Source: a virus (taxonomy: Duplodnaviria > Heunggongvirae > Uroviricota > Caudoviricetes). From it: a stretch of 64,000 bases of DNA. The position numbers and the translations under genes were made by a program. Shown here piece by piece: positions 33,823 to 64,000 of this stretch (position 1 is its first letter; each line of letters starts with the position of its first letter). The DNA lies in IMG/VR virus record IMGVR_UViG_3300010356_003454, positions 8,820 to 72,819 of that record; one strand, 5' to 3'. Below the pieces are notes generated by a model. It saw nothing but the letters and a program-made list of their open reading frames with translations, did not search any database and had not been told where the DNA came from.

Positions 33823-34531
33823 GGGAATAATATACTGTGCTATTTCTCCAAATGGAAAAAGATATATTGGACTTTCCACAAAATCACTAAATCAAAGGAA
33901 GTCCCAGCATTTTTTGATTTTCAAAAAATCTCCAAGGAATCTGTATTTTTATAATGCATTGAGGAAATATGGTTTTGATAATTTTGAATGGATTCTTCTT
34001 GAAGAAATAGAGGCCGATTCAAAAATTGATTTATTAAAGGATCTTAAAATCCTAGAATCATTCTATATTTCTAAATATAACACTTCTAAAAAAGAGTTTG
34101 GATACAATCTAACATTAGGAGGGGATGAAGGTCCTAATGAAGATACGATTGAAAAAATCAAAAAAATAAATACCGAAAAATGGACGGATCCGGAATATAG
34201 GAAAAAGCAGGAAGAAAATTGGGAAGATGCAGAATTTGTCGAAAAATTTAAAAATATTATGAAGGGATTAAGCAATGAAAATTCCAGAAAAATAAAAGAA
34301 AAATGGACGGATCCGGAATATCGAGCTAAATTGGTTAATATAAGAAATACGGATGAATATAAACAAAATCAAAGAAATAATGCTTTAAAACAATGGGAGA
34401 ATCCAGAAATTCGAGAAAAAAGTTTAAAAAGTTTTAAAGAGAAAATCTGGAATAATCCAGAGAGAAATAAAAAAATAAGTGATGCTCTGAAAAGAAATGC
34501 CATCGAAAAAAGAAAAAAAAAGGAGGTTTAA
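33809..34531 (+). CDS. GIY-YIG homing endonuclease
   Basis: GIIYCAISPNGKRYIGLS..FYNALRKYGFDNF..GYNLTLGG; EKWTDPEYR repeat. Confidence 0.85.
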   Translation: MGMYKGIIYCAISPNGKRYIGLSTKSLNQRKSQHFLIFKKSPRNLYFYNALRKYGFDNFEWILLEEIEADSKIDLLKDLKILESFYISKYNTSKKEFGYNLTLGGDEGPNEDTIEKIKKINTEKWTDPEYRKKQEENWEDAEFVEKFKNIMKGLSNENSRKIKEKWTDPEYRAKLVNIRNTDEYKQNQRNNALKQWENPEIREKSLKSFKEKIWNNPERNKKISDALKRNAIEKRKKKEV

Positions 34532-34542
34532 GACTCCTTTTT
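34516..34542. terminator. Bidirectional terminator between convergent genes
   Basis: A run-GGAG..CTCC-T run. Confidence 0.6.
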
Positions 34543-35208
34543 ATTTTTTGATTCCTTTAGAAATTTTCTAAATCTAGGATAGTATTCCTCCCCTACCGAA
34601 TCAACAAAATCCCTCATTGAAGGATCATGTCTCTCTTCATGAGTTATTAGCTGAACTGAAGTAGGATCCACATTAAATTTTAGAGCTGTATCAAATTCTT
34701 GAACAATATAATGAAGAATGTTTCCTTGCGCATCATCTTTGATTCCAATAACTTTTCCGTGAATCTTTTTATTTTTCCCTAATACTTTTCCTTTAACTTC
34801 TGATCCTGCATGAATATATCTTTCATCTCCTTGCGGTGTAGCTGGTTGCTGAAGAATAGGGTCTAGAGGCTTTATACTATAAGTATACATTAGATTAGGT
34901 CCACCGTTATTAGACGAACTCTGGCCAAAACCAAAGCCTCTCCCGTATACGCGACCACCCATAGATGGATTTCCGTATCCCCCAGATCCTCCGCCCCATA
35001 CGGCATATCCAGCTCCTCCTATTCCCTCTTTTAATACATCCTCCAAATCCTCTTTCCTAACCATTCTGGTCATTCCAGAGATATCTTTAGATAATATTTG
35101 GAGATCAGGATCTTCAAAAAGAAATAATTTCTGAATTTCCGGATTATCTAGGCTTTCAGAACTTACGTAATATTCTTTTCCTTTTACTATGACTTTTTCG
35201 CTGTTCAT
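34528..35208 (-). CDS. Hypothetical protein, Gly-rich, possible internal head protein
   Basis: VLKE-GIGGAGY.. and a terminal PRFRKFLKE motif; late-promoter motif upstream. Confidence 0.6.
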   Translation of the reverse strand: MNSEKVIVKGKEYYVSSESLDNPEIQKLFLFEDPDLQILSKDISGMTRMVRKEDLEDVLKEGIGGAGYAVWGGGSGGYGNPSMGGRVYGRGFGFGQSSSNNGGPNLMYTYSIKPLDPILQQPATPQGDERYIHAGSEVKGKVLGKNKKIHGKVIGIKDDAQGNILHYIVQEFDTALKFNVDPTSVQLITHEERHDPSMRDFVDSVGEEYYPRFRKFLKESKNKKES

Positions 35209-35215
35209 ATCTTAT

Positions 35216-35686
35216 TTATCCTTTTAGCCATTCCTTCTTTGATAGGAATCCAGAAGCCATTCCATCCTGATAATGAAAGACCCTGGTTCCATCTGGTAAT
35301 TTTCCTTCTTGCCATATAAATGTTCCCCATTTATTAGTATTTGCCTGCCTCTTTTTAGGACCAACTGGCTGAAATTCTGCTAAGAATTCTTCGGAATCAA
35401 CATGTTCAGGCAGCTCGTTTTCAATATACCAGTCTTCATCAAATCCTGCATAGTCAGTAAATGCTAATGGATCTGAAGGATTATACTCTATTTCTTCTAA
35501 AAAATCAGGTGGAAGTCCTCCTTTTTGAAACCACTCTCTAGAGGAGTCACCTTCCATCGAATCTACTTCAGGAAATCCTTGCGATAGAATAGCCTTTTTA
35601 ATTCCATGATGGCCTATTCCTAGAGTATCATAAATATCGCCACCTCTTTGAAATTTTGCAGTCTCAAAAACTTTTTTAGCTCTCAT
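35216..35686 (-). CDS. Hypothetical protein with MRAKKVFE..FQRGGD...LGIG leader
   Basis: Leader shared with 51471..51872 and the C-terminal part of 46728..47630. Confidence 0.65.
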   Translation of the reverse strand: MRAKKVFETAKFQRGGDIYDTLGIGHHGIKKAILSQGFPEVDSMEGDSSREWFQKGGLPPDFLEEIEYNPSDPLAFTDYAGFDEDWYIENELPEHVDSEEFLAEFQPVGPKKRQANTNKWGTFIWQEGKLPDGTRVFHYQDGMASGFLSKKEWLKG

Positions 35687-37203
35687 TAGACAAATAGCAT
35701 ATATTCAATTTTGATATTAAATGTATGAGGATTATAGACATAGAATCCATCAATTAGATTATCGCAATCAGGACATCCGTCTGGAGCAGTAGTCCAAGCA
35801 TAGAAATCTCCAAACTTTCTCCAAAGATCGTTTGATGTAATATAATCCAAATAATCCCCGGCACTCATGATTGTTTCCGTAGATGATCCATTCATTCCTA
35901 CATCAAGTTTCTTAATGAATTTTTGATAATAAGTGGATGAATCTAAATATGTCTTAACAATAGAAGTGGACTCATTAATTCTTATTTCCTTACAATCCTC
36001 TAAAGTAGTTATTTCTTTTTCGCAATTATACAAAGTACATCTAATAAGCGAAACATCATATATTATGGAATTATAGATAGAAGAGTCAGATATTTCAGAA
36101 TTCCAAATGGTTGTCTCGTTTATAACAGAATTCCCTATAAATGATCTTTCTGATGCATCTATTTGAAATAAGTTAATATTGCTTTTTTCTATAACACTAT
36201 TTTGGAAATCCGTCCAGTATATCCTGGATTCGGTTATAGAGGAATCAACAACACTACAATTTATTAGGGAGCAATCATTTACAAGATCCGCAGGACCGAT
36301 TGTGATATCTTCTAAATCCATATCATATAATCCTGTGGTTACATCCTCAACAAATGGTCCAAAAATTATACTCGGATCAAAAGTTATTTGAATTTGGCTA
36401 AAATAATTGTCTATTTCAATAGGCTCATAAATTTTAACATAATCATTAACATGTTTAATATAGAGCCATTTATCATAAGGGGATTCAGGAGTAGAATTAG
36501 GATATGTGCTCTTCATAATTATTCCCTGCATAGCTCCGTTTGGATATTTAGCATAAAGAATATCATAGTCTTCTGATTCTTCTAAAGTATATGAATCCAA
36601 ATTGGCCTCATGAGGAAATGGGGATGCAGAATCTATTGATGCATCGATAATATTAAGTATAACATTAGAAGCTGTAAAATCAAATCCATCTACATCACCT
36701 GTAAATATTAAAGCGCTTGAATCAAGAGAGGCAGTAATGTTTATTCCCAAATTTCCAAATTGGATATTAAGAGCATCCACAATATTTATATTCTGAGAAT
36801 AATTTGCGGTGACATCTATAGCTTGATTGTAAAATTTAAAATTCTTATAGTAATTAATTGATAAATCAACACTAAAGAAATATGGATTTAGGGATTCATT
36901 ATAGCTTACTAGATATGGTAACAAAAATCCCTGCTGTCTCTGTTGAAGACCCTTTGATAGACCGGGAATATAGACTACCTCTCCCTGCCCTAAAACTTTA
37001 GTCTCAGTACTATAAGCAGTTACAGGTATAGATAAATTTGAAAAATCTATTTTTGCTAATATATCGCTTCCTGATATTATTCCTATTCCATCCTTAATAA
37101 ATTCTAGATTTGCTGAATCGGAAACCCCTGCACAGGGGGATAGAGCAGGATATACATAATCATTGCTGGGATTGTTAAATACGTCTATAGCCATTATAAG
37201 CAC
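35686..37203 (-). CDS. Putative virion structural protein
   Basis: 505 aa, D-x-S rich, with pentapeptide-like (S.I..S.I) segments; late-promoter motif upstream. Confidence 0.55.
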   Translation of the reverse strand: MLIMAIDVFNNPSNDYVYPALSPCAGVSDSANLEFIKDGIGIISGSDILAKIDFSNLSIPVTAYSTETKVLGQGEVVYIPGLSKGLQQRQQGFLLPYLVSYNESLNPYFFSVDLSINYYKNFKFYNQAIDVTANYSQNINIVDALNIQFGNLGINITASLDSSALIFTGDVDGFDFTASNVILNIIDASIDSASPFPHEANLDSYTLEESEDYDILYAKYPNGAMQGIIMKSTYPNSTPESPYDKWLYIKHVNDYVKIYEPIEIDNYFSQIQITFDPSIIFGPFVEDVTTGLYDMDLEDITIGPADLVNDCSLINCSVVDSSITESRIYWTDFQNSVIEKSNINLFQIDASERSFIGNSVINETTIWNSEISDSSIYNSIIYDVSLIRCTLYNCEKEITTLEDCKEIRINESTSIVKTYLDSSTYYQKFIKKLDVGMNGSSTETIMSAGDYLDYITSNDLWRKFGDFYAWTTAPDGCPDCDNLIDGFYVYNPHTFNIKIEYMLFV

Positions 37204-37228
37204 CTTTATTTTATCTATTTATTCAAAC

Positions 37229-41930: not shown

Positions 41931-42000
41931 GATACAACTTTTATTGTTATAGATATATCCCCCTAAATAGTTTTAGGATATATAAATAAAACAGTACTTA

Positions 42001-42573
42001 ATGATTCTAAATTCATTAAATAATCAATTTGTAGTTCAGTTTCCTAAGGGATTCTTCTATCCCGAGATAGTAGCTAAGTGGGAACCGGTAGTTCAGAGAT
42101 TAAAGCTTCCACATCAAACTATGGAGGATTTTATCAATGCTACAGTTCAGAGTGTCACATTTCCAAGTGTAGAACTTCCTCCAGTAGAGCAGGGTCAGGG
42201 ACAGTTTAAAATTCAGTACAGACCAGGAAAGGAACTTGAACCTCTCCTAGAAAAGAATCTAACAGTTACTTTTAAGCTTTCTGAAGGATTTATTTCTTAT
42301 TGGATACTTTTTGAACAGGTAGAGTCTTTTATCGAATATAGAGAGTCTCTTCCATTCTGGCCTCCAATGTATGTCTCATTTTTGGATCATAAGGGATTTG
42401 AACTAGTAGCATTCTCATTTGAGAAGATAATTCCGTTATCACTTTCCCAATTTGAGATATCATATGCTCAGACTGCAGCTGAATTTAATACATTTAATAT
42501 GACCTTAAGATATAATAGGTATAATATTAAAAGACGTATTGATGATAATAACTATTCAAAAAATAATTCATAA
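42001..42573 (+). CDS. Tail-tube-fold protein (T4 gp3/gp54-like)
   Basis: NNQFVVQFP..QSVTFPSVEL..PG..LTVTFKLSE.F.SYW..F..F.EFNMTLRY pattern. Confidence 0.6.
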   Translation: MILNSLNNQFVVQFPKGFFYPEIVAKWEPVVQRLKLPHQTMEDFINATVQSVTFPSVELPPVEQGQGQFKIQYRPGKELEPLLEKNLTVTFKLSEGFISYWILFEQVESFIEYRESLPFWPPMYVSFLDHKGFELVAFSFEKIIPLSLSQFEISYAQTAAEFNTFNMTLRYNRYNIKRRIDDNNYSKNNS

Positions 42574-43022
42574 TGAAAAAACTTGTCAATGAGAGCCTAA
42601 ACGAATTTATGGGGCAAGAGATCTCTACAAAGAAGGGATTCTTTACAAATATTGAGAAGGATACTCTTGAGAATGAAAAATTTCGCAAAGTCTTATATAC
42701 AGGGGAGAATATCCAGTTAGTTCTTATGACTTTAGCTCCAAATGAAGAGATCGGACAAGAAGTTCATGAAAATGATCAGTTCTTCCGTTTTGAAGGTGGT
42801 GAGGGAAAGGTTACAGTTAATAATTCAGAATATAGAGTTAAAGATGGAGATTGTGTTATTATACCAGCAGGATCCGAACATAATATTATAAATACAGGAT
42901 CCGAACCCTTTAAGATGTATACACTATATGCTCCCCCTCATCATAAAGATGGCACAATTCATAAAACTAAGGAAGAAGCAGTAGAGAAGGAAGAGGAATT
43001 TGACGGAAAAACCTCTGAATAA
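42573..43022 (+). CDS. Cupin-domain protein
   Basis: QLVLMTL.P.EEIG.EVH..DQFFRFEGG.G..GD.V.IPAG.EHNI..LYA.PHH; N-terminal MKKLVNESLNE leader. Confidence 0.85.
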   Translation: MKKLVNESLNEFMGQEISTKKGFFTNIEKDTLENEKFRKVLYTGENIQLVLMTLAPNEEIGQEVHENDQFFRFEGGEGKVTVNNSEYRVKDGDCVIIPAGSEHNIINTGSEPFKMYTLYAPPHHKDGTIHKTKEEAVEKEEEFDGKTSE

Positions 43023-43050
43023 ATATAGAAATAAAGATAATAAAGATATT

Positions 43051-43422
43051 ATGGAAAAGAGACTAAGTCGCCCAGCTTTCGCCAATGAATCAGAAGAGAT
43101 CCCAACTTATTTAGATTTCAAATATGCATTATCTTCGAAGATATTCGAAGCTCAAGAAGTTGCTGGAAGTACTCCAGAGCAACTTCAGGCAGCTGAAGAT
43201 GCATATAATAAGATAGTAGAGGGCCTACAGAAAGGGGAGGATATTGACGAGGGACTCTTGGGAGCTCTCGCGGGAGGCGCAGCAGGAGCTCTGGCAGGAC
43301 CTGCAATAGGAAGAGCTATTTGTAATGTTCTTGGAATTGATCAAAATGGAACTCTGGGCAGATTATTAACTTCTAGATTAGTATCAACTGCTCTTGGATA
43401 TGCTATTGGTAAGGGAAAATAG
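43051..43422 (+). CDS. Glycine-zipper protein
   Basis: DIDE-GLLGALAGGAAGALAGPAIG; ATG at 43051 preferred. Confidence 0.65.
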   Translation: MEKRLSRPAFANESEEIPTYLDFKYALSSKIFEAQEVAGSTPEQLQAAEDAYNKIVEGLQKGEDIDEGLLGALAGGAAGALAGPAIGRAICNVLGIDQNGTLGRLLTSRLVSTALGYAIGKGK

Positions 43423-43431
43423 ATATGAATT

Positions 43432-43635
43432 ATGAAAGCAAAATTAGTTAGGGAATCTCTTAATGAGTATTATGGGAGGAAGAAATATTTTGACGGCCAT
43501 CCTCTATCAAAATATAATGCGGATGGGAGTGAAAGGGATCCTTATGAATTATCAGATCAAACCGTTAATGGGAAAAGATTAACATGGGATGAATTTTGGG
43601 ACTGGTACGAAAGAGAGGGGGAGACCGATTATTAG
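43432..43635 (+). CDS. Small hypothetical protein with MKAKLVRESLNE leader
   Basis: Leader motif shared with neighbouring genes. Confidence 0.6.
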   Translation: MKAKLVRESLNEYYGRKKYFDGHPLSKYNADGSERDPYELSDQTVNGKRLTWDEFWDWYEREGETDY

Positions 43636-43658
43636 TAGAAACGCCAAATACAAAATAA

Positions 43659-44279
43659 ATGAGAATAATAGGATTTGACTTTAGTATAAATAAGCCAGCC
43701 GCTTGCATTTACGAAAACAACAATTATGAATTCTATTCTTGGCCATTCGGGCTAAGTGAAAAAATCAAAGAAATTTATCGAGAAGCCGGAGTTCACCTAT
43801 TTAATAGGGAGGATGAAAAGTATAAGGGAACAGACTCTTCTGAAAAAATGAGAAAGGATGTTAGTAATGCTGCTTATCTATCCGATTTAATAATATCAAG
43901 TCTCCCAGATGGGGACCTGTCTAATGATCAAATAGTTTTCGAGGGATTATCTTTTGGCTCAACGGGAAACGTGGTTCTTCAACTAGGAGGATATAAATAT
44001 ATTCTTATGAAAGATTTATATGATGAGTGTGTTCCCTGGGAAAATATGACCACTTATGCTCCTATAACTCTAAAGAAAACTGCTGGAGCTTCAAAGAAGG
44101 GAATGGGAAAAGCAGAAATGATAGAATCATTTTTAGAAAGATCCTCTTGTCCTTTTGCGGAATTTATTAATAAAGATAGATTTCTATTTCAAAAGAAGAC
44201 TGGAACCTGGATTGATCATTTGGATGATTTAGTGGACTCTTTCTGGGCAGTAGAGACATTTAGAGAGAAGAATGGATAA
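43659..44279 (+). CDS. RuvC-like (RNase H fold) Holliday junction resolvase
   Basis: IIGFDFS, IVFEGLSFG, KKTAG..K..M, DDLVDSFWA. Confidence 0.75.
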   Translation: MRIIGFDFSINKPAACIYENNNYEFYSWPFGLSEKIKEIYREAGVHLFNREDEKYKGTDSSEKMRKDVSNAAYLSDLIISSLPDGDLSNDQIVFEGLSFGSTGNVVLQLGGYKYILMKDLYDECVPWENMTTYAPITLKKTAGASKKGMGKAEMIESFLERSSCPFAEFINKDRFLFQKKTGTWIDHLDDLVDSFWAVETFREKNG

Positions 44280-44411
44280 ATTCCTACTAAGATACTAAGT
44301 TATCTTCTTTCCTGAGTGCTTAAGCTCTAATTTTATGCTCCAATAAAAAAAAGTTTTAAAGTCCAAGTTAAAAATCCGTTAGCAATTTAACGTTTTTTAA
44401 CGGTTAGAATC

Positions 44412-44441
44412 TTTGTACTTAGCGAGGATTTATTATATTTG
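44412..44441 (+). promoter_or_regulatory. Bacteroidota sigma-A-type promoter
   Basis: TTTG (44412-15), 18-nt spacer, TATATTTG (44434-41) matches the established TTTG / TAnnTTTG consensus; 4 nt upstream of the tRNA-like element. Confidence 0.65.
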
Positions 44442-44445
44442 TATT

Positions 44446-44523
44446 GGCCTAGCTCCGATAGATGCTAGCCTATCGAGAGACCGGGAACTCAAAAAGCTGG
44501 GGGTTCGAATCCCTCCAAGGCCA
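44446..44523 (+). ncRNA. tRNA-like RNA lacking a canonical anticodon arm
   Basis: Acceptor stem GGCCTAG/CAAGGCC (1 mismatch) plus discriminator A; T-arm GGGGG-TTCGAAT-CCCTC; 6-bp CGATAG/CTATCG hairpin; no 5-bp anticodon stem; no encoded CCA. Confidence 0.6.
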
Positions 44524-44547
44524 CAAAGATAATTAAAATTTAGAGAT

Positions 44548-44730: not shown

Positions 44731-44802
44731 AAAAATGTTAAAGGATAGAAATACCTTCCTTTAATCCCTCTTCGTTCATATAAATAATAAAAACAGACTA
44801 TT

Positions 44803-45313: not shown

Positions 45314-45400
45314 AATTTATAATTTATATTTCTAGCTATCTATGAGGAAAAAGTGTATTAGCAAATGGTTAATTTTCTATTACGAATCGGTTAAATTATT

Positions 45401-46727: not shown

Positions 46728-47630
46728 ATGAAATTTATATCCTTAAATAGATGGCTAAACGAACAGACTCTTAGGGGAAATGTATCTGATCAGAGCAAAC
46801 CTGCAGAGGACGTTAAATACGGATGCGTTATGATGGACACAAAGATTCCAAATTGGGAGGAATATCATACTGCAGGCATTGATGAGGATGATGTTTATAT
46901 TAAGCCTCACGATAAATCATATGGACTTGAAACAGATCCTCACGTTACAGTAGTTTATGGAATCCATGAGGATGAAATAGATCCAGAGACAGTGGCTAGT
47001 GTTATTAAAGCAAATATGAAGCCCCTTACGGTAACTATTGATGAAATTGATATATTTGAAGGAGATGAATACGATGTGGTGAAATACAACGTTCCTGTAA
47101 ATGATCAGCTGCAGGAATATCGAGATCTTTTTTTAAAGTTTCCTAATACCCAAACATTTCCTGAATATCATCCTCACATGACTATTGCTTATGTTAAGCC
47201 GGGAGCGGGAAAGAAATATAAAAGAAAACTTCGAGATCCCTTTGAAGTTACTTTTACAGATGGGGTTTATTCATATCACGATAATCCGGATGATCCTGAA
47301 GATTTCACAAGAAAGGTCTATAATTTAGAGGACGGCGGGAAAAAGAAAAGGGTAGATGAAAATGTTGGATTTGAGAGGGGGGTGGAGCCTTATGAAGCAT
47401 TAGGGATTGGAGAAAAAAGATTTATAAATCAAGTTGTCAACAGGGTTTTTAATATTACAAAGAATTCAATTTGGAGCGAATATGGATATCCACCACCATC
47501 TAAAAAAGATATAGAAGAATGGGCGGAGAATTTAGCTTCTTATATAGGTATTGAAACCCTTGTTGAAGATGAAGATAGGGCTCTTAGCGATGCTTTTGAA
47601 GAACACTGGATGGAGAAAAATGAACAATAA
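46728..47630 (+). CDS. 2H phosphoesterase (T4 gp57B/Acb1-like) with leader and C-terminal module
   Basis: Two HxT motifs, PHVTVVY and TFPEYHPHMTIAY. Confidence 0.8.
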   Translation: MKFISLNRWLNEQTLRGNVSDQSKPAEDVKYGCVMMDTKIPNWEEYHTAGIDEDDVYIKPHDKSYGLETDPHVTVVYGIHEDEIDPETVASVIKANMKPLTVTIDEIDIFEGDEYDVVKYNVPVNDQLQEYRDLFLKFPNTQTFPEYHPHMTIAYVKPGAGKKYKRKLRDPFEVTFTDGVYSYHDNPDDPEDFTRKVYNLEDGGKKKRVDENVGFERGVEPYEALGIGEKRFINQVVNRVFNITKNSIWSEYGYPPPSKKDIEEWAENLASYIGIETLVEDEDRALSDAFEEHWMEKNEQ

Positions 47631-47634: not shown

Positions 47635-48540
47635 ATGAAATTCCAAAGTCTAAAAGAATGGATTAGCTTGAATGAGGGAGGGGAAGCAATTCCTAATTCC
47701 AGACCAATTACTTGGGATGAAGCTCAAGCTCTTTATTCATGGATTAAGAAATTGATGCCTTCTAAATTTGGTATTGAGCCGGAAGATTTAGAAGTAATAG
47801 GATCTTATGGAAAAAAGGTACAGGGAGAAACCCATGGGGACTTAGATATAGCAGTTTCCGTGGACTCCTTAGTTGAGAGAAACGGATTAGGGAAAGATCA
47901 GGTTTTGGACTTTGTAAATGATGCTCTTCTATCAATGGGATTTGAAACTAAGAAGATGCCAGGTTTTAAACAGGTTTCTGCTGGGATACCTATACCCGGA
48001 ACTTCTGATATAGCTCAAGTAGATTTCATGCTATCACCGGGACTCGAATGGTCTAAATTTGTTTATCATTCTCCCGATTTTCGAAGTGGAGAATCAAAAT
48101 ATAAGGGCGTTTATAGGAATGCTCTTCTGATGGCTATAATTACCGAATCATCTAAGGAAATATTAAAAAGAACTCCGGCAGGAGATGTCGAGGAGTTGGA
48201 AACTAATGTTATAAGATATCCAGAAGGAATTTGGAGAGCTCGAAAGAGCTTTATGGGAAAGAAGGGATTGGTGAAAACCGGACAGCTCCTAAGAGATTTT
48301 GATAAGTTTGTTACTATTAATCCCCAAGAGGTTACAGAATTAGCAGTAGGAAAGGGATATACTCCTCAGAGTATTAGCACTTTTGAGAGATTATGGCATA
48401 TAGTAACTCGAAGTAACTTTGTCCATTCAGATAAATTGGATGACATACTCCAGAAATTTGCAGTAAATCTAAAGAGTATGGGAATTCCTTATCCGGAAGA
48501 GGCTAAAGAAAAATATCCAGAAATATTTGAAGACATCTAA
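47635..48540 (+). CDS. Pol-beta superfamily nucleotidyltransferase
   Basis: IGSYGKK....HGDLDIAV plus third acid in QVDFM; ATG at 47635 gives the MKFQSLKEWISLNE leader. Confidence 0.8.
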   Translation: MKFQSLKEWISLNEGGEAIPNSRPITWDEAQALYSWIKKLMPSKFGIEPEDLEVIGSYGKKVQGETHGDLDIAVSVDSLVERNGLGKDQVLDFVNDALLSMGFETKKMPGFKQVSAGIPIPGTSDIAQVDFMLSPGLEWSKFVYHSPDFRSGESKYKGVYRNALLMAIITESSKEILKRTPAGDVEELETNVIRYPEGIWRARKSFMGKKGLVKTGQLLRDFDKFVTINPQEVTELAVGKGYTPQSISTFERLWHIVTRSNFVHSDKLDDILQKFAVNLKSMGIPYPEEAKEKYPEIFEDI

Positions 48541-48607: not shown

Positions 48608-49474
48608 ATGTTTATAGATCCAAATTATTCCTTTCAATTGGAGATAAAAAATCCAGGTAGACTTAAATTATTACATGAAGTTTTAGACCCTAGTTTAAAA
48701 ATGGGAGATAGCGTGAATGTTCCGTGGTATTTCCTTAAAACCTCCTCTTTAAGATCAAATCATTTAAAATTAAAGTGCGATGATTGTGGAAATGTGTTTT
48801 CTAAAAAACTTTGTAATTTAGACCCCTCTAATAATATTCATTATTGTGGTTCATGCTTTCAAAAAGGAGAACGTCATTATAATTTTGGTGGGAGCATTCA
48901 TAAAAATTCAAAAATAGGCATTATTAATTGGCATGATAATAATGAAAATCCTGCTAGAAGAACCGGGGTCAGGAAAAAAATATCAAAAGCTAGAAAGGGG
49001 AAACCCTCTAATATGCTTGGAAAAAATCAATCAGAGGAGACAAAAAGAAAAATAAGTGATTCTAATAAAATTACAATGAAAAAAATGTGGGAAACCGGTA
49101 AATTGAATTATAAATCTAAATATGCCGATTCTAAAATAGAGGAATATAAAGGAATTCAATATCAAGGAAATTATGAACTGGATTTTTTAAAGGAAATGGA
49201 AAAATATGGTCTATTGAGTTTAATAGAAAGGGGACCTGTAATTGAATATATGGATTCGGCAGGAAAGAATAGATTATATTTGGTTGATTTTAAAATAAAG
49301 AATACAGATTTATTAATCGAGATTAAATCCTCCTATACAATTAAGATAAATAGTAAGAATAATCATTTGAAATTTGAATTCGCTAAAAAACATGGAAATT
49401 TTATTATAATTATAGATAAGGATTATTCAGATCTTCGTAAAAAAATTAATGAATATGGGATTTCAAAGTTTTAA
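48608..49474 (+). CDS. Putative homing endonuclease, PD-(D/E)xK (TnsA-like) with Zn ribbon and NUMOD3-like repeats
   Basis: CDDC..CGSC, SEETKRKIS, YQGNYE..YLVDF..LLIEIKSSY. Confidence 0.75.
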   Translation: MFIDPNYSFQLEIKNPGRLKLLHEVLDPSLKMGDSVNVPWYFLKTSSLRSNHLKLKCDDCGNVFSKKLCNLDPSNNIHYCGSCFQKGERHYNFGGSIHKNSKIGIINWHDNNENPARRTGVRKKISKARKGKPSNMLGKNQSEETKRKISDSNKITMKKMWETGKLNYKSKYADSKIEEYKGIQYQGNYELDFLKEMEKYGLLSLIERGPVIEYMDSAGKNRLYLVDFKIKNTDLLIEIKSSYTIKINSKNNHLKFEFAKKHGNFIIIIDKDYSDLRKKINEYGISKF

Positions 49475-51467
49475 AAACTGGTCAGCCGAAAATAATATAA
49501 AAGATAAAGGCATAACGGTTTTATATCCAGGAGGTTACAAACCTCTACATGGGGGTCACATTTCCATTATCCGTAAATATTCGGAATTGCCTGAAGTGAG
49601 TGAAATCCGCGTATTGATTGGTCCCGGGGTCAGAGATGGTATTGATCAGGATAGAGCTGCTAGAATTGCGGAGCGACTTACATCTGGTATTGATAAAGTT
49701 ATTGTTGAAAAAGTTCAGTGGCCTTCACCAGTATTAACAGCTTATAAAATTATAGGTGAAGCAGATCCTGGATATTATGCTCTTGCTGCATCTACAAAGG
49801 GAGATGACTATAAGAGAGTTCAGGACTTTGTAATGAAGCACTCCCCTGGACAGAAATTCTGCAGAGAGGAAGATGGAGTTTATGTTATAGAACTTCCTGT
49901 TAATGCAGAGCCATTAGTATTCTCCGGAAGGGATGATGAGCACGAAGGCGAGCCAATTTCTGCATCTATTCTTAGAAATGATATAGTCAATGATGATTTT
50001 GATAATTTTGTAGCAGGATATCCGGATTCTGATCCAGAAGATATTCAATATGTTTGGAGCGAATTAGCAGAAACTGTTATGAATGAATCCCAATTTACTT
50101 CTGGATCTCCAACAGTTTCTTCAATGGGTAATTATGATCGATCGCAGCCTGGCTATTATTATAGAAATATGCATATGATTGCAGATAGTGATGAAGGCGA
50201 GCCTGAAGATATTTCTGAGGGAGGAGCAGCTGGGCATCTTATGTCTCCTTGGGAAGCTACGGATATGACATTTGGTGAAATCCGCCAACTTATATGGGAT
50301 TCATTAGGTGGTAAGCTCCAAAATGTAACTGAAAAACTCGACGGGCAGAATATAATGGTCACTGTTAAGAATGGTAATGTATATCTTGCTAGAACTCAAA
50401 AGCAGATGAAGAATGGCGGGGAATTGGCTATGAGATGGGACGAGGTTTATGATTCTATGAGTGAGAAAACCCCGGATCATATTAAAAAGGCGTTCCAGCA
50501 AGCCATTAGCGACATCCAAACAGTTATGACTTATGGTAACATGGAAGAGCTCAATAAACTCTTTAAAAACGGCTCTAGATGGCTTAATATCGAGCTTTTA
50601 AACCCAGAGACAGAAAATATAGTGCCTTATGGAGAATTTCAGCTCAGGATTCATAATATCAGAGAGGTTGATGATAACGGGAAAGAGACTAATGTAATAT
50701 GGGAGGGAAAGGATCTGGATAAGATATTAGGTTATATCGATGAGGCTCAAAAAGATGATAATTTAGAAAAGATACACTTAATTAAGAAGACCAATTCCGT
50801 AAATTTTGAAAATATTAAGGATATGGAGAATATCCAAGAGGGGATCATCCGAAGTCTTCAGGTTCTTATGGATGAGAATCATTTGGATGATGAGAATAAT
50901 ATAGGAGATTATTTAGCCCAAGAAATTCGAACTTGGTTACAGGGACATATTAAGGATAGAGGAACAGTTGAAGAGCTAGTTCAGAGATGGGCTTATGGAA
51001 ATAAGTCAACAAATATAGCTCAAATAGTTAAGCAGGTTGAAGAAAAAGAGGGTAAATGGATTCGCGAACAGGATAAGAAAATAGATGACAAGATTGGTGA
51101 ATTGCTAGATCCCCTTATTGAGATATTTTCTCGAGTGGGAATTGCAGTTCTTCAGAACCTATCTGGGATAGCAGCCTCTAATAAGGATTCTGTTTCTAAA
51201 GGAATCAGAAAAAAAGCTGAACAGGCTATAAAGAATATTGAAGAATTTTCTAAGAAAGCTGAAGTTGAAGATATGGAGGATTTCCAGAAAAAGCTATATT
51301 ATCTGGAGACTCAATTACGTAGGATTGAACAAGCTGGAGGATTAGAGGGTATTGCTCCTGTAGAAGGTGTGGTTTTTGAATATAAAGGAAGGCTTTTTAA
51401 GCTGACCGGAATTTATCTTCCTATTCTTAAAATGATAAATTTCTTTCAATTCGGAAGGGATAATTAG
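49449..51467 (+). CDS. Fusion of HxGH (cytidylyltransferase-like) nucleotidyltransferase and RNA-ligase-like domain
   Basis: PGGYKPLHGGH..SASILR in the N-terminal domain; EGGAAGH..VTEKLDGQN..EGVVF...FKLTG (motifs I, IV, V) in the C-terminal domain. Confidence 0.7.
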   Translation: MNMGFQSFKNWSAENNIKDKGITVLYPGGYKPLHGGHISIIRKYSELPEVSEIRVLIGPGVRDGIDQDRAARIAERLTSGIDKVIVEKVQWPSPVLTAYKIIGEADPGYYALAASTKGDDYKRVQDFVMKHSPGQKFCREEDGVYVIELPVNAEPLVFSGRDDEHEGEPISASILRNDIVNDDFDNFVAGYPDSDPEDIQYVWSELAETVMNESQFTSGSPTVSSMGNYDRSQPGYYYRNMHMIADSDEGEPEDISEGGAAGHLMSPWEATDMTFGEIRQLIWDSLGGKLQNVTEKLDGQNIMVTVKNGNVYLARTQKQMKNGGELAMRWDEVYDSMSEKTPDHIKKAFQQAISDIQTVMTYGNMEELNKLFKNGSRWLNIELLNPETENIVPYGEFQLRIHNIREVDDNGKETNVIWEGKDLDKILGYIDEAQKDDNLEKIHLIKKTNSVNFENIKDMENIQEGIIRSLQVLMDENHLDDENNIGDYLAQEIRTWLQGHIKDRGTVEELVQRWAYGNKSTNIAQIVKQVEEKEGKWIREQDKKIDDKIGELLDPLIEIFSRVGIAVLQNLSGIAASNKDSVSKGIRKKAEQAIKNIEEFSKKAEVEDMEDFQKKLYYLETQLRRIEQAGGLEGIAPVEGVVFEYKGRLFKLTGIYLPILKMINFFQFGRDN

Positions 51468-51470
51468 CAT

Positions 51471-51872
51471 ATGAGAGCCAAATTCATCAGAGGAAATGAT
51501 CCTAAATCAGCTATGAGTATAGGAAGGGCTAATCTTAATTACTTTCAGAATAGCGTAAAATATTCTACCCCCTTTGAGCAACTATTAGGTGAGATGGTCT
51601 TTACTCACTTATTTCAGGATCATCAAATTCTGGAAAAAGCTGCTAAAATTTTGGGAGTGGAAGAAAATGAGGTTCGAATTGCATGTAATGAATACGATGA
51701 AGCTCTATCAGGAAGCGAAGTTGAACAGCATGCTGAAAGTCACGAATGGACATATTATAACGAGGACGAAACTGAAGAATACCAATTAATTCAGGCATCC
51801 ACTCTCGAAATCTATGTTGTCCATCGCGAGTATAATGATCTATTCCTGATGCTTCTAGGAGCAATATATTAG
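51471..51872 (+). CDS. Hypothetical protein with MRAKFIRGNDP...SIG leader
   Basis: Leader shared with 35216..35686. Confidence 0.65.
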   Translation: MRAKFIRGNDPKSAMSIGRANLNYFQNSVKYSTPFEQLLGEMVFTHLFQDHQILEKAAKILGVEENEVRIACNEYDEALSGSEVEQHAESHEWTYYNEDETEEYQLIQASTLEIYVVHREYNDLFLMLLGAIY

Positions 51873-57516: not shown

Positions 57517-57546
57517 ATGGATAAATAAAGAAAATGACTCTTTATT

Positions 57547-57909
57547 ATGAGAAAATTTGTTGCCGAGAATATCGAAGAAGTAAAAGAATGGGTTTCTTCA
57601 GATACAGGATTTGAATTATATGCTGAACCTGCTGATAACGGAGGTGATATGAATGTTTCGGATCTTTCTGATGAAGATATTCAGGACCTAATTCCACCAC
57701 CAGGATTTAAATTTAATCCAGCTTCTTTTTCTGAATATGTAGATACCCTAATTGAAGCAATTCCCGAAAATCCGGTTTTTGTTGCTAAGGCTTTTGATGC
57801 AGCCCTTAAACAACATCCTTATCTAACTCAGAGAGGAGTAGGATTTAAACAGAATAATCCATTTGAAGCATCAATACAAAAATTTATTCAGGCTCTAAGA
57901 AGCTTATAA
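57547..57909 (+). CDS. Hypothetical protein, possible internal head protein
   Basis: MRKFVAENIEE leader; late promoter upstream. Confidence 0.65.
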   Translation: MRKFVAENIEEVKEWVSSDTGFELYAEPADNGGDMNVSDLSDEDIQDLIPPPGFKFNPASFSEYVDTLIEAIPENPVFVAKAFDAALKQHPYLTQRGVGFKQNNPFEASIQKFIQALRSL

Positions 57910-57911
57910 TT

Positions 57912-58490
57912 ATGAAGGCTAAAACCGTTTTCGAAGAGGTTCGATTCAATTTTAAAGGAAGTCCTACAGATAGATTCCGGGTTAAACCTGGAATAAAAAG
58001 AGGGCCTTCTGAGAATCCTAGAAAACAGAGATCCGGACTAAATCCCGATGAAGAAGAAATTGTAAATAGATTTCGTGATAAATTAGAGAAAATTAGAGAC
58101 GAGATCTATTCATTAGAGGATGAAAAAGAATCATTAGAGAGGGATCTAGAGGATCTGGCAGAAACCCCGTTTGACTCAGGAGAACTTGAAGAGTTTTATG
58201 CAGATGTTCAGAACAGATATGGATTCAATGCTTTAGATATTCTTAATTCTGGAATGGAAGACGAAGAAAAAATCAAGGCTATAGATGCTCTTAATCCTCG
58301 AGAGGATTTCGGGAGGAGAGAATTTGAAGATCTAATGCATAATTATAATTATTATCATCCAGCAGGGGCGGACCAGGATCAGGTAGAAAAAATTGAAAAG
58401 AGAATAAGAGCTATCGAAAATGTTCTCAAAGAAAGAGAAGGCATGATTGATAGACTCGAGACTAAAATATATAATTTGGAGAACTATTAA
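57912..58490 (+). CDS. Coiled-coil hypothetical protein
   Basis: MKAKTVFEE leader; two heptad segments. Confidence 0.7.
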   Translation: MKAKTVFEEVRFNFKGSPTDRFRVKPGIKRGPSENPRKQRSGLNPDEEEIVNRFRDKLEKIRDEIYSLEDEKESLERDLEDLAETPFDSGELEEFYADVQNRYGFNALDILNSGMEDEEKIKAIDALNPREDFGRREFEDLMHNYNYYHPAGADQDQVEKIEKRIRAIENVLKEREGMIDRLETKIYNLENY

Positions 58491-58492: not shown

Positions 58493-59386
58493 ATGGCATT
58501 TTTAAGAGAAGGCGCGGTAAAAGATCTTATGACCCGAGGACCTAATAAGGATACTTTGGTTCAATGGGCTTCTCAAAATGTTCTTACCTCTAGAGAAAAT
58601 CCAGGGGAGAGAATTCGAGAGTATGCTCATCAGTTTGGTCTTACTGTGTCAGAATTAGAATCCTTAACGAATATATTTCTTGGCATGGAACAGAGCCCAT
58701 CAGATTCAGATGTTTTGCTAGATTTATTATCTAGTATTAAGGAAGCCCGAGAATTTGGAGATATTAGGGAAGACCTCCATTTTGATAATGAATATATAAA
58801 TAAAACTAAAAATATGAAAGAATCTATTTTAATGCCTCGACTACTAAAAGAGGATCATCATAAAGAGTGTTCCGATGAGGCTTCAATGGTAAAGATTCAG
58901 CTTAAGAGTATTATTGATGAAGCTGGTGAAATTTTACAAGGATTAGATAGTTGCGAGCAGATAGATGCTTGGGTTCAGAGCAAAATTTCTATAGCAGAGG
59001 ATTACATCTCAACGGTTGCTAAATATATGAAATATGAAGAGGAAGAGGCTCCTGCTGAATTACCTCTAGTTCCTGCTGAAGATGAACTTATAGGTGGACC
59101 TAAGGTTTCAGATGAACCACTATCATTACCTAAAGATGACATGATGATGCCTCCTATGGGTCCTGATGTAGAACCAGAAGGAGAATTAGTTCAGTCCGAA
59201 ATTGAAATTGATGCAGATGATGAATTGGAAGAACCAGAAGATGATGGATTTGATGAATTTGCTGAAGATGATGAATTTTCGGAAGATGATGAATTTGTTG
59301 ATGATGAAGATATGGAAGAAGCAGAACCTGAAGAAGATGATTTAGAAATATTTTCTAAAGCTGATTTCGAAAATATAAAAGGCTAA
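58493..59386 (+). CDS. Acidic protein with possible nested start at 58814
   Basis: EASMVKIQL..WVQSKI..AEDYI..Y domain and a long D/E tail; late-promoter motif at 58790 inside the ORF. Confidence 0.7.
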   Translation: MAFLREGAVKDLMTRGPNKDTLVQWASQNVLTSRENPGERIREYAHQFGLTVSELESLTNIFLGMEQSPSDSDVLLDLLSSIKEAREFGDIREDLHFDNEYINKTKNMKESILMPRLLKEDHHKECSDEASMVKIQLKSIIDEAGEILQGLDSCEQIDAWVQSKISIAEDYISTVAKYMKYEEEEAPAELPLVPAEDELIGGPKVSDEPLSLPKDDMMMPPMGPDVEPEGELVQSEIEIDADDELEEPEDDGFDEFAEDDEFSEDDEFVDDEDMEEAEPEEDDLEIFSKADFENIKG

Positions 59387-60896: not shown

Positions 60897-61415
60897 ATGA
60901 GAAAATTTAACGCTGTTTTTAAGGAAAAACAGGCCATTACAGAAAAGGTTCTAGAAGAAAAACTCCTAAATCAATTTAAGGATGTTTATTCCGCTCTTTT
61001 GGAACAATACCAGACTGTAGAGTTTTATGAGTTAGATGAGGATACTCAGGTCGCTTTCCTTAGGGAACTAAATGAATACTGGACTGAAGAAGAAGGCCTA
61101 TCTAATAAAGGTCAGAAATTCCTTAAGACTAAATCCACTATTCTAACTGAATCGTCAACTGCATTACAGAAGAAATCCTTTCTTAAGAATAAAGCTACCG
61201 TTATTATATCTGAATCACTTAGACAAGCTGATCTTAAGACCAAACTATATGAAGTTCTTGATGAAATGTTTAAGAATACTCAGTCTAAAGAGATTACCGA
61301 TGTCTTACCAGTAGATGCTATCTCAGGAACGATACTTGAATCATTTGGAAGTGCTTTGCAAGACTTAATGACTGAAATTGTTTATGAACTATCTCCCGAA
61401 AAAGAAGAAGAATAA
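60897..61415 (+). CDS. Hypothetical protein, possible prohead core/internal protein
   Basis: Several I/L-x-E sites (AITE, ILTE, IISE); late promoter upstream. Confidence 0.65.
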   Translation: MRKFNAVFKEKQAITEKVLEEKLLNQFKDVYSALLEQYQTVEFYELDEDTQVAFLRELNEYWTEEEGLSNKGQKFLKTKSTILTESSTALQKKSFLKNKATVIISESLRQADLKTKLYEVLDEMFKNTQSKEITDVLPVDAISGTILESFGSALQDLMTEIVYELSPEKEEE

Positions 61416-61466: not shown

Positions 61467-61506
61467 GTGAGATATATAAGATATACTAATTTAAAAATTA
61501 AATATC

Positions 61507-63315
61507 ATGTTGAACACGCTCGAAATGGTTTTAGAAAAAAGAGGACCAGAGTATCTTAATCAACTACTAAGCGACGAAATCATTGTCACAGAAAAATTAG
61601 ATACCTACAGAATCCTCTTTGAAAATGTTAATGGAGAACTGAAGTTCTTCAAAAAAGATAATACAGAGCTCAGTCTTGTAGAAAGAGTTCTTACCAACAT
61701 TTGGGAGGATGCTATTATAGAACTTTCCATTATTCTTCACGAAGAAAAATTGCCAGAAGGCTTATGTTTTGGGGTAGCTTATACTCCAGTCAATAAGCCT
61801 ATTCGTTTATCTTATGATAAAATGCCAAAGTATATCCTAACGGATGTTACGAAAAGAAATCCATCTACGAAAAAGGTCTTGGAATCCTATGATTATGATG
61901 AAGTCACCGAATGGGCGTCCAAACTTAATTTAGGAAGGCCCCCTGTAATATTCGCCGGAAAGCTTTCGGACACTCAGAAAAAGAAGCTTATAGAATACGG
62001 AAAGGGAAATTATGATGAAGAAGAGAATTTATTAGAAATAATTGGTAATTCCTATTCTGGATCTGATATTATAGAAGGAATCATTATAAAGTCTGGAGAT
62101 CAGCTTATTCAAGTTCAGACTTATGAATTTGAAATTCTAAATGAGGCATATCAAAGAGTAGAGAGCTCCAGAGATTTTTATGATCTTACTCTGCTTAGAA
62201 TTAATTCTTTCATGGATAGGTATGATTATCCTCAGCTTACAGAAAGATCGTCCGATGAGCTCTATCTCGAATTAGTTTGCGATATATTTAATAATTATTG
62301 CAAAGCTGGAAATATCTCTGAAGATATCGATCCAAAATACTTAAATCCACCTAGTTATGGCTATTCCGGGGATTTAAACCTTCTATTAATCAAAAATCTG
62401 GATACTATTAAGATTCTCGAGAGCGGGAATAAAATTCACGAATCTGTATTTAAAATTATGCTCTCTTCTTTTAGAAAGTATAAAAAACCATATGGTCTTT
62501 TAGGAGAATCCCATGTTCAGAAATTTAATACTTATGTCTATTTCATAAATGAGAAGGTCAAAGGGCAGAGTTTAGGAACTATTCCTATGACCGAATTAAT
62601 TACAGAAGGAAAAATAGAAGAGGCTTCAGACAATGTAGTAGTTAATGCTGTTCACGATAAGATAAAAACTGATGTAGATAATATGAAAATTATTGCATCA
62701 GTTCAAAAAGCATTCCAGCCTATTGCTCCTAAACTAAATAAGGGCAAAGATAGATGCGTAATTTATTTGACTGATCCCCAGCCATTGACAAAATCGCAGG
62801 AGGAAAATATTCAGGATCTTGCTAGAGTCTGGAAAGCACCTGTTCTTCTTGCATTTGTAAGAGGAAATGCTAGACTAGATGGAGAAAAATTTCACTTATC
62901 TGATGAGATTAAGAAAGCTCAGCTAGAGGCATTTGCTGATTCCCATAAGGATATAGTCCCTGCTTTCTTCTCTATTGAATCATGGGATTTGGTAGAAATA
63001 TTCCAGTATGCTAGACCATCTTATGAGCCGATAGCAGTAATCACAGATAGCGATAAAAAGAGTGAATTTTCGGTCCAATTATACTTTGAAGAAGAAGTTA
63101 TGGGCGGTCGAATTGGTGTTGAGAAGGACTTTAATATTGGGGAGATGGAGAATAAGGATAAGTTAACTGCTTTCCGAACCATCGAAGATAATGAAGTTGT
63201 AACATTTAGAGAATTAACTCCTGATTCAGTATGGGGATATTTTAATACCATGGTTTCTGAATACAGAAAGTGGAATGGAAGTGTGCCCGAACAGTTTAAA
63301 GAGAATAAATTTTGA
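61507..63315 (+). CDS. RNA-ligase-like domain fused to a degenerate HxGH-nucleotidyltransferase-like domain
   Basis: IVTEKLDTY and IIEGIIIK in the N-terminal part; C-terminal VIYLTDPQPLTKSQ aligns by eye with the G.F.P...GH loop but lacks the histidines. Confidence 0.5.
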   Translation: MLNTLEMVLEKRGPEYLNQLLSDEIIVTEKLDTYRILFENVNGELKFFKKDNTELSLVERVLTNIWEDAIIELSIILHEEKLPEGLCFGVAYTPVNKPIRLSYDKMPKYILTDVTKRNPSTKKVLESYDYDEVTEWASKLNLGRPPVIFAGKLSDTQKKKLIEYGKGNYDEEENLLEIIGNSYSGSDIIEGIIIKSGDQLIQVQTYEFEILNEAYQRVESSRDFYDLTLLRINSFMDRYDYPQLTERSSDELYLELVCDIFNNYCKAGNISEDIDPKYLNPPSYGYSGDLNLLLIKNLDTIKILESGNKIHESVFKIMLSSFRKYKKPYGLLGESHVQKFNTYVYFINEKVKGQSLGTIPMTELITEGKIEEASDNVVVNAVHDKIKTDVDNMKIIASVQKAFQPIAPKLNKGKDRCVIYLTDPQPLTKSQEENIQDLARVWKAPVLLAFVRGNARLDGEKFHLSDEIKKAQLEAFADSHKDIVPAFFSIESWDLVEIFQYARPSYEPIAVITDSDKKSEFSVQLYFEEEVMGGRIGVEKDFNIGEMENKDKLTAFRTIEDNEVVTFRELTPDSVWGYFNTMVSEYRKWNGSVPEQFKENKF

Positions 63316-63338
63316 ATAAATAAAATAAAAGTATAGAT

Positions 63339-64000
63339 ATGTCTATAATTACTCCGACGAGAGAAGAATTAAAAGAGGCTTGCAAAATGCTTCAGTTTAA
63401 TATTAATATGCCCAGCATAATCGAATATCTTAATGAAAATGATGTTGATTATAGGGGATGGACTGATCTAGAAATGATCCGTTGGTATCTAGAAAACGGG
63501 GGTCCGATAAATGAATCTCTTAATGAAGGAACTTGGGCTTTGCCTAAATCATCTCAGGAGAGAAGGGATGCAGCTCTTTATTTCACAGATATAATTGAGA
63601 GGTTAAAGAAAGAAATCTATCCAGTATTTGGGGATGATATTCTTTTTGACGAATTTGATGGTGCTATTAGGAGAATTGAGGAGCTTTCTACTATTCCTGA
63701 AGAAGAAATTAAGGAATCCCTTAATGAAGATGTTACCATACCTCCTCAATTAGCTAATCAATACCTTACCGTTAAGAAACAAATGGCTGATAAACAGAGT
63801 AAGAGGGATCAACTTATGAAATCTGTTAATCAGGTGGATAATGAGATGAATATTCTTAATAAAAATCTTATTGCAATAGAGACAAAAGCTGCTGAATTAC
63901 AGGGAAAGGAAGTTGAACCGCAAGGAGAAAAAGCGCAGGGAACTCAGACTGTTGAGGTTCAGGGAACGGTTAAAGAGTCCTTTGATATTGATGAATGGTG
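63339..64000 (+). CDS. Hypothetical protein, 3'-truncated by window edge, possible internal head protein
   Basis: Hand-read open frame MSIITPTREELKEAC... containing INESLNE and IKESLNE; absent from the track. Confidence 0.7.
   Translation, partial: MSIITPTREELKEACKMLQFNINMPSIIEYLNENDVDYRGWTDLEMIRWYLENGGPINESLNEGTWALPKSSQERRDAALYFTDIIERLKKEIYPVFGDDILFDEFDGAIRRIEELSTIPEEEIKESLNEDVTIPPQLANQYLTVKKQMADKQSKRDQLMKSVNQVDNEMNILNKNLIAIETKAAELQGKEVEPQGEKAQGTQTVEVQGTVKESFDIDEW

Follow-up and report, generated by a model that had tools for sequence, protein, structure and literature searches.

A portable cut-site-and-tag leader on unrelated proteins of a large uncultured tailed phage, a candidate label for head cargo

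A 64,000-nucleotide stretch of tailed phage DNA (Caudoviricetes; hereafter the window, bases 8820–72819 of the single 136,819-bp IMG/VR contig IMGVR_UViG_3300010356_003454) raises a simple question: why do so many of its unrelated proteins begin with much the same short peptide? A preliminary description of this DNA had proposed that about a dozen genes carry leaders like those that direct phage T4 internal proteins into the capsid. We called genes on the whole contig (n = 180) and inspected every N-terminus, and about 10 genes in the region 34528–64000 bear a genuine portable leader. Our preferred explanation, to which we would give a probability of roughly 55% based on sequence comparison, is that these leaders are a "cut site plus retained tag" label for proteins that would be loaded into the assembling head and trimmed by a prohead protease of the T4 gp21 type. 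The system is real and non-random, and appears best described as a variant of head cargo labelling of the capsid-targeting sequence (CTS) type. It differs from known labelling in that a cut site is combined with a retained tag, the unit is used between modules too, and it is massively expanded.

Two N-terminal motifs recur, often joined: M-[KR]-A-K-x-V-x-E-S-L-N-E and F-E-R-G-x-D-P-K-x-A-[LM]-x-I-G. The order within a leader is an optional M-[KR]-A-K-x, a hydrophobic-x-E site, S-[LIV]-N, and then either E or a 16-residue tag (F-E-R-G-x-D-P-K-x-x-[ML]-x-I-G). Leaders that end in E (the "ESLNE" type) therefore contain two tandem hydrophobic-x-E sites. A profile of the joined form gives 23 to 25 matches along the contig, every one on the coding strand, at the starts of open reading frames (ORFs) or within them; about 20 more leader members lie downstream from the window. 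The tag is strongly conserved (F 100%, R 100%, G 98%, P 95%, and the final G 98%), and M-N-F-E-R-G is the direct start in ~30% of N-terminal copies.

The internal copies show what the complete unit looks like. In a set of 127 junctions within polyproteins, L, V, I, or M occupies position −6 in 83%, Glu is at −4 in 97%, and Ser is at −3 in 80%, and a second set, of 81 junctions in IMG/VR relatives, gives a similar logo (lower values: E at −4 in 96% and S at −3 in 70%). The consensus before internal tags is thus a hydrophobic residue (−6), any residue, E (−4), S (−3), a hydrophobic residue (−2), and N (−1), followed by F-E-R-G, which identifies the "ESLNE" leaders of the window as the first half of the unit, with the tag absent. 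Composite leaders also occur in the relatives (e.g., M-K-L-I-P-E-S-L-E-E-S-L-N-F-E-R-G). The predicted cut after the conserved Glu would leave a protein that starts S-x-N-F-E-R-G, the same kind of start as in the genes that begin directly with M-N-F-E-R-G.

Could such short motifs arise by chance, or from features of the DNA such as translation-start context, a recombination hot spot, or a repeat? It should be noted that genes of AT-rich genomes often start M-K or M-R with A-rich codons, that module exchange does occur at the unit (see below), and that a loose [VIL]-x-E rule does no better than chance (matches in the first 14 residues of 41 genes vs. ~37 expected). We reject this loose rule as evidence, and with it the I/L-x-E near the N-terminus that had been taken as the mark of the family. 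The specific motifs behave very differently. In a six-frame search of the 137-kb contig, the strict pattern [LIVF]-x-E-[SNHA]-[LIW]-x-[EG] matches 13 times; 12 of the matches are in called genes, nine at 3–5 residues past the initiator Met, and two internal in gene 63339. ES[LI][NKD][EG] occurs in the first 25 residues of six genes (0.26 expected); for [VIL]-N-E within the first 14 residues, the count is 11 genes (2.3 expected, P = 3e-5). Every profile match is in frame and on the coding strand, and internal copies keep the motif where there is no start context. Moreover, each conserved residue is encoded by more than one synonymous codon (TTC/TTT 8:10; four Gly codons; three Pro codons), which indicates selection on the peptide rather than the DNA. 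Codon variation and the internal copies largely refute a DNA-level repeat, and we find an origin of the likeness in DNA features or chance barely credible.

Within the window, the full leader is seen in the 156-aa product of 35216..35686 (minus strand; profile E 2.6e-14 and 1.5e-15), where the segment 35612–35686 (minus strand) encodes MRAK-K-V-F-E and then F-Q-R-G-G-D...L-G-I-G. The MRAKKVFE terminus reported earlier is thus present, as the start, at 35686, of a minus-strand gene; this gene lies downstream from gene 35686–37194. A shortened full leader, MRAK-F-I-R-G-N-D-P-K...S-I-G (51471–51524), begins the 133-aa product of 51471..51872 (plus strand; profile E 1.3e-8). Half leaders of the "ESLNE" type are found on the cupin of 42573..43022 (plus strand; first 11 residues, 42573–42605, then a short linker; Pfam Cupin_2 8.6e-19, residues 51–118) and on the 67-aa protein of 43432..43635 (plus strand; leader 43432–43467, with the strict pattern five residues from Met).

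Three neighboring plus-strand genes have variant leaders. The 2H phosphoesterase of 46728..47630 (Pfam 2_5_RNA_ligase2 6.4e-10 and a weak Acb1 match) starts M-K-F-x-S-L-x-x-W-L-N-E (46728–46763) and has, in addition, an internal cut site plus tag at 47349–47411 (plus strand; profile E 3.2e-8), so that the 2H module is followed by the internal tag and then a 72-aa helical module. AlphaFold2 predicts the 2H and C-terminal helical domains with confidence, and residues 12–22 (leader) and 204–228 (junction) have pLDDT below 50. The second gene, 47635..48540, encodes a Pol-beta-type nucleotidyltransferase-like protein (weak Pfam NTP_transf_2 match, 0.0038) with a leader ending S-L-N-E/G-G (47635–47676; here and below, a slash marks the point directly after the Glu of a cut or junction site). 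The third, 49455..51467, encodes an HxGH nucleotidyltransferase fused to a ligase-like (KxDG) domain, behind a leader at 49455–49490; the protein has no Pfam match, and its domains were assigned by sequence motifs. Its N-terminus had been placed at 49449, and the start, MGFQSF..., is at 49455. Two adjacent genes with probable leaders occupy 57547..58490 (plus strand). The first begins M-R-K-F-V-A-E-N-I-E-E, a strict-pattern match, and the second (57912) begins M-K-A-K-T-V-F-E followed by a degenerate F-K-G-S-P, with a weak profile match (E 0.46). Finally, gene 63339..64000 (plus strand), which continues beyond the window end, encodes a very acidic 368-aa protein with no Pfam or PHROG match. 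Its two internal I-x-E-S-L-N-E copies, which had been spotted in the preliminary description, are at 63507–63527 and 63708–63728, and I-K-E-S-L-N-E is retained in acidic homologues in relatives.

The N-termini quoted in that description all exist at or near the positions given for them. As for the proposed family of about a dozen, genes 35216, 42573, 43432, 46728, 47635, 49455, 57547, 57912 (degenerate), and 63339 stand as members. The acidic 297-aa protein MAFLRE (58493..59386, plus strand) and gene 60897–61415 have nothing beyond the loose hydrophobic-x-E rule, and fall at chance level. Overlooked were gene 51471, the internal tag at 47349–47411, the F-E-R-G...I-G half of the leader, and the ~20 downstream members. 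In short, the cut-site half of the leader had been caught, in the right direction, together with some chance-level members.

What makes the leader portable, rather than a property of one protein family, is that it sits on unrelated folds: a cupin, a 2H phosphoesterase, a Pol-beta-type nucleotidyltransferase, an HxGH-nucleotidyltransferase/ligase-like fusion, and several unannotated bodies. The cupin is the clearest case. Bacterial chromosomal homologues (from sources named Niabella, Sphingobacteriales, and Pyrinomonadaceae) are 67%–72% identical and 131–137 aa long, begin at the body, and have no leader; the phage cupins have leader variants plus a linker of varying length. The 2H family retains its variant leader M-K-F-x-S-L-x-x-W-L-N-E, which is found at the internal junction in the GNAT-2H fusions of relatives (one such fusion is encoded on a 376-kb NCBI contig).

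Where relatives have these genes split or fused, the boundary lies directly behind the Glu. The homologue of the 47635 nucleotidyltransferase in relative G003 starts M-G-G-N-A-I-K, precisely at the residue that follows S-L-N-E in the window protein. Similarly, the HxGH-ligase fusion is two genes in G003 and G006, the second of which starts M-S-G-A-A-G-H or M-A-G-S-A-G-H, right after the Glu of the D-I-S-E/G-G-A-A-G-H junction of the 49455 fusion (50208–50219, plus strand). The proposal that this junction separates domains is thereby supported, as a true module boundary. A full tag is present at the HxGH/ligase boundary in genome G018 (described below), and in a 97%-identical strain (L044) the module of gene 51471 is internal, behind Y-I-G-E/S-A-N-F-E-R-G. 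The unit is also widespread: a profile search of the whole library matched 1682 cluster representatives at an E-value threshold of 0.001 and 482 at 1e-10. A single protein can hold as many as 12 copies, and 83–244 residues (median 114) lie between tags.

Two other putative junctions listed in the preliminary description, VLKE-GIGG and DIDE-GLLG, are present in genes 34528–35208 and 43000–43422, respectively. The latter encodes a 140-aa protein in which D-I-D-E is followed by a Gly/Ala-rich hydrophobic C-terminus of the glycine-zipper type, which may be a membrane-active peptide released by a cut.

If the unit is read by a head protease, where is that protease? The contig is ~34% complete according to CheckV, which at 136,819 bp implies a genome near 400 kb, and has a GC content of ~35%. 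The window includes genes for the large terminase, a head-closure-like protein, the tail sheath, and fibre-like proteins. The nearest named relatives are the Prevotella Lak megaphages, with sheaths 41% identical to the one here. A megablast search of 42000–52000 against GenBank phages gave no match, and neither a profile nor a DNA pattern found the tag in the cultured or named relatives Lak-C1, MaF61, PTm1, LR756500, or LR756502 (as a control, the own genome gave 23 matches). Close IMG/VR relatives retrieved via the sheath were short contigs only, and a capsid-protein query against genome contigs found nothing. We fetched IMG/VR relatives with a back-translated tag pattern and examined 17 long tag-bearing contigs. 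Five relatives (G003, G006, G009, G011, and G017) have terminase or polymerase-like genes ~70% identical to those of the contig. The G003 terminase gene and the G006 polymerase-like gene each match as two pieces, suggesting insertions.

A Peptidase_S77 domain (T4 gp21 type) fused to a scaffold-like region is encoded in the leader-bearing G001, G007, G018, and G020, and weakly in G005; among the 17 long contigs it starts ORFs of ~780–850 residues in G001 and G007 (weakly G005). The protease of the relatives also matches Pfam Peptidase_S80, more weakly (6.7e-8), a point of likeness to the phiKZ-like phages considered below. A Gp23-family capsid gene (6.5e-39) adjoins the protease gene in G001 and G007, and the capsid protein of the relatives has a site, H-A-L-N-E/A-E-M-G-G, that aligns with F-L-T-E/A-E-I-G-G of T4 gp23, which is cut after E65 (E65/A66) (PMC5694885). 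The scaffold-like region that follows the protease domain contains 8–10 [VIL]-N-E sites where ~1 is expected (P 1e-6 to 1.6e-7). Thus, the motif that precedes the tags is also found in the scaffold-like region and at the maturation site of the capsid protein.

A further relative, G018 (IMGVR_UViG_3300027899_000001), is a complete genome of 405,016 bp with terminal repeats, whose terminase is 54% identical to that of the contig and whose capsid protein is 79% identical to that of G001. Its protease fusion has 10 [VIL]-N-E sites (1.04 expected, P = 1.6e-7), and its capsid site is H-A-L-N-E/A-A-M-G-G. The tag profile matched only once in this genome; a regular-expression scan then revealed a diverged leader, M-K-L-V-R-E-H-I-N-E-K-F-x-E-E-S-D-P-x-x-D-M-G-I-G, in 81 copies (47 N-terminal and 34 internal). 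The internal copies keep hydrophobic-N-E directly before K-F. The cut-type motif is therefore kept in two lineages in registers ~4 residues apart. This is easier to reconcile with recognition by a protease than with a fixed structural element. Also in G018, K-F-x-x-Y-x-K-W-L-N-E directly precedes the tag, and this ties the variant leader of the window to the same system. Immediately next to its capsid gene, G018 has clustered genes of glycosyltransferase-, methyltransferase-, and epimerase-like type (296–304 kb), and a similar cluster is found in G001 (65.9–74 kb).

A further connection is on the contig itself. Approximately 4 kb past the window, genome positions 76773–77558 (L002:4773-5558) encode a leader-bearing 261-aa protein that contains Q-I-D-E/D-A-V-G-G-V-S-A-P..., similar to the capsid cut site and N-terminal arm. 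Over 66 residues, this segment and the G001 capsid protein are 44% identical (E 1e-12), and the G003 and G006 homologues match at 62%–75%. One possibility is a minor capsid or core protein with an N-arm that mimics the one of the capsid protein. An HAD-type phosphatase (genome 76192–76764) starts M-R-A-K-R-V, and its counterpart in relative G006 (L130:65-619) starts M-R-A-K-T-V-N-Q; with neither Glu nor tag, this start is perhaps a decayed or partial leader.

An alternative that must be weighed at this point is that the unit is never cut, and is simply a flexible linker or cap between the independently folding modules of "polyvalent" proteins, with N-terminal copies as remnants of shuffling. 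The strings of modules, with 83–244 residues between tags, and the movement of modules between genes at the unit are what this would predict, and phage polyvalent proteins with 2–15 domains have been described, some of them packaged unprocessed (PMC5512222). However, a pure linker does not require a Glu conserved to 97% or a hydrophobic residue at −2 from that Glu, would not persist at the N-terminus of single-module genes or join a captured bacterial cupin, and fits less well with the shifted register in G018 than does a site read by an enzyme. We consider an uncleaved linker quite improbable.

Expression timing can be approached through two AT-rich promoter-like motifs, P1 ([GA]ATATATAA) and P2 (G[GA]ATAAATA[AG]), found 13–30 nt before start codons. 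P1 has 17 matches in the window (6.7 expected; 0 of 100 shuffles reach 17) and precedes tube and fibre genes (by ~25 nt), homing endonuclease genes, and leader clusters. One copy (GATATATAA, 41977..41985, plus strand) heads the 42001–43635 cluster, and P1-like sites at 45847–45855 and 48593–48601 head the 45872–48540 and 48608–51872 clusters. P2 has eight matches (2.9 expected), at 3025–3034, 3572–3581, 18306–18315, 23498–23507, 57519–57528 (before the 57547 gene pair), and 63314–63323 (before gene 63339), and on the minus strand at 35212–35221 and 37215–37224, the latter being the P2 motif of gene 35686–37194. All eight are on the coding strand, 13–30 nt 5′ of start codons; four precede tail or neck genes, including the sheath gene, and four precede leader clusters or neighboring genes. 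P2 is a candidate late promoter and resembles the T4 late TATAAATA box. Counting from the gene table, a P1 or P2 motif stands before 13 of the contig's 14 leader clusters. The suggestion that many leader genes follow a late-promoter motif thus holds as far as the motif goes; its sharing with tail genes is consistent with late expression of the leader clusters, and does not prove it.

The 45872–48540 cluster begins with an Amidase_2 gene (45872–46726; a peptidoglycan amidase, endolysin-like) directly 5′ of the leader-bearing 2H gene, and the P1 motif is common to both. Numerous homing endonuclease genes (GIY-YIG or NUMOD type) are found, at window positions 20034, 26783, 33809, 48608, and 55339, as well as at several places downstream, interspersed among structural and replication genes, and several have P1 upstream.

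A different explanation leaves the capsid uninvolved. The tag could be a linear motif that recruits unrelated proteins to a common partner in the infected cell (a chaperone, compartment, condensate, or import machine), with the upstream hydrophobic-x-E-S cut, if at all, by another protease. The 16-residue tag is conserved more strongly than protease sites usually are, sits after the predicted cut, and is predicted to be disordered, as linear motifs are; the capsid protein and scaffold region, which are the known substrates of the protease, are without it; and many of the bodies are enzymes able to act in the cytoplasm. What recruitment leaves unexplained is why the motif before the tag copies the hydrophobic-N-E of the capsid and scaffold sites, why a leader-bearing protein holds a copy of the capsid cut site and N-arm, and why leader clusters and tail genes have promoter-like motifs in common. 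No second protease candidate turned up, with no search aimed at one. On balance we regard recruitment away from the capsid as unlikely.

Several observations nevertheless weigh against the label for head cargo that we prefer, for which cleavage and packaging are inferred from comparison. No match to Pfam Peptidase_S77 or Gp23 (prohead protease and major capsid protein) was found on the contig, which is ~34% of the genome, so the link to the protease runs through relatives. Of these, G001 and G007, which carry the protease, represent different parts of the genome and have few further genes in common with the comparable parts of the contig, and the bridging genome, G018, has a terminase of only 54% identity and a diverged leader. 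A cut site requires nothing like the strong conservation of the tag, which lies after the predicted cut and so would remain on the product; the purpose of the tag may have nothing to do with the capsid. Some of the cargo (enzymes of the RNA-repair type) would be of equal use in the cytoplasm. Homing endonuclease genes also have P1 and P2 before them, so these motifs are not proven late promoters. Lastly, hydrophobic-x-E-[SN] occurs 37 times in 13,623 residues of module bodies, approximately the compositional expectation; this absence of depletion is uninformative on cutting.

Under the cargo-label reading, proteins and polyproteins would be made late and enter the prohead core, where the gp21-type protease would cut after Glu and separate the modules. 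Each module would be freed with the tag at its N-terminus, like the genes that start M-N-F-E-R-G; the tag might bind the scaffold, the capsid interior, or the DNA. The cargo (the cupin, the 2H phosphoesterase, the nucleotidyltransferases, and many small modules) would be delivered with the DNA. We would extend this only tentatively to the broader proposal that any protein, even a newly captured host enzyme, could become head cargo by acquiring a unit of ~25 residues, and that dozens might be injected as an immediate-early enzyme and anti-defence kit. This proposal includes single as well as strung modules, cutting within the capsid by the prohead protease, and a tag that would act as a docking peptide for the capsid interior or the DNA.

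Two further features near the leader genes deserve a brief description. The proteins encoded at 58493–59386, 63339–64445, and 65154–66527 (the last two extending past the window end) are very acidic, with long Glu/Asp-rich tails, and none has a Pfam or PHROG match; two of the three have I-x-E-S-L-N-E copies within them or numerous hydrophobic-x-E sites. Roles as core or scaffold-like proteins, or as DNA mimics, are possible. The acidic protein of G001 does not adjoin the head genes, and its position is therefore no guide to what it does. We also considered the genes after 61507 as a head module, and rejected this because they encode an RNA-ligase-like protein and acidic proteins without Pfam or PHROG matches.

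If the cargo label is real, the packaged and injected proteome of an uncultured phage clade with ~400-kb genomes could be read directly from sequence, and the cargo would be far larger and more modular than that of T4 or phiKZ (tens of modules per genome, and ~1700 public protein clusters). The combination of hydrophobic-N-E and tag would become a rule for finding candidate early counter-defence enzymes, among which the window offers the Acb1-like 2H phosphoesterase and the nucleotidyltransferases. It would also show how host genes are converted into phage cargo, and provide a natural tag with which foreign proteins could be brought into large capsids.

How does this compare with what is known? 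Text searches of the literature for the motif strings returned unrelated papers only, and no counterpart of the retained tag is described in the literature searched. Encapsulin cargo-loading peptides are short, disordered, conserved, and usually C-terminal, and dock diverse cargo inside an HK97-fold shell. They involve no protease step and have no sequence relation to the leaders here, so the likeness is an analogy only. A further comparison is with polyvalent proteins, known from phages and conjugative elements (Iyer, Burroughs, Anand, de Souza, Aravind 2017; PMC5512222), which similarly combine many unrelated conflict-type domains in one polypeptide, are predicted to be delivered with the DNA, and shuffle domains rapidly. 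The proteins here share that multi-module character. However, polyvalent proteins are defined by domain content and often have their own zincin-like peptidase, and no uniform inter-domain tag or prohead-protease site is described for them (PMC5512222), whereas here the same unit stands before every one of the small modules (~114 residues). Neither a peptidase nor a MuF-type domain is among the Pfam matches of the window's members, and no peptidase motif was noticed in 20 polyproteins examined by reading rather than by Pfam scan.

The phiKZ-like phages offer a comparison at the level of the cut site. SPN3US gp53 and gp54 start M-A-N-F-V-K-S-K-L-A-R-E-S-V-E, phiKZ gp93 is cut at S-L-E-13, and diverged head paralogues in this group have identical N-termini with tandem x-x-E sites (PMC5694885). 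Such inner-body and ejection propeptides, cut by gp175 or gp245, resemble the K-L-V-R-E-S-L-N-E seen here. In contrast, the residue that is small (S, A, or G) in those sites is L, V, I, or M here (in 83% of the 127 junctions, and in the capsid and scaffold sites), and their propeptides are mostly >100 residues, with no retained tag or polyprotein strings reported.

In T4, the CTS is found on the internal proteins IPI, IPII, IPIII, and Alt, and is removed by the prohead protease gp21; we verified the CTS of ipII and ipIII in NC_000866. Residues 8 and 10 govern its processing, and it can load foreign proteins (PMC9026906). The preliminary description had likened the leaders to this system, and the likeness holds in several respects: a short N-terminal peptide ending in hydrophobic-x-E is common to unrelated proteins, is portable, and has internal counterparts at junctions, and the relatives encode a Peptidase_S77 as well as a Gp23-type capsid protein in which the same motif marks the homologous maturation position. 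It does not extend to the sequence of the CTS (M-K-T-Y-Q-E-F-I-A-E), with which the leaders share nothing beyond the hydrophobic-x-E rule. Unlike the T4 peptide, the unit here prefers Asn at the middle position, would leave the 16-residue tag on the product after the cut, also joins modules within polyproteins (up to 12 per chain), and, as known here from sequence, occurs in ~80 copies in one 405-kb genome rather than a handful. With these differences, the T4 CTS is the closest precedent for the leaders described here.

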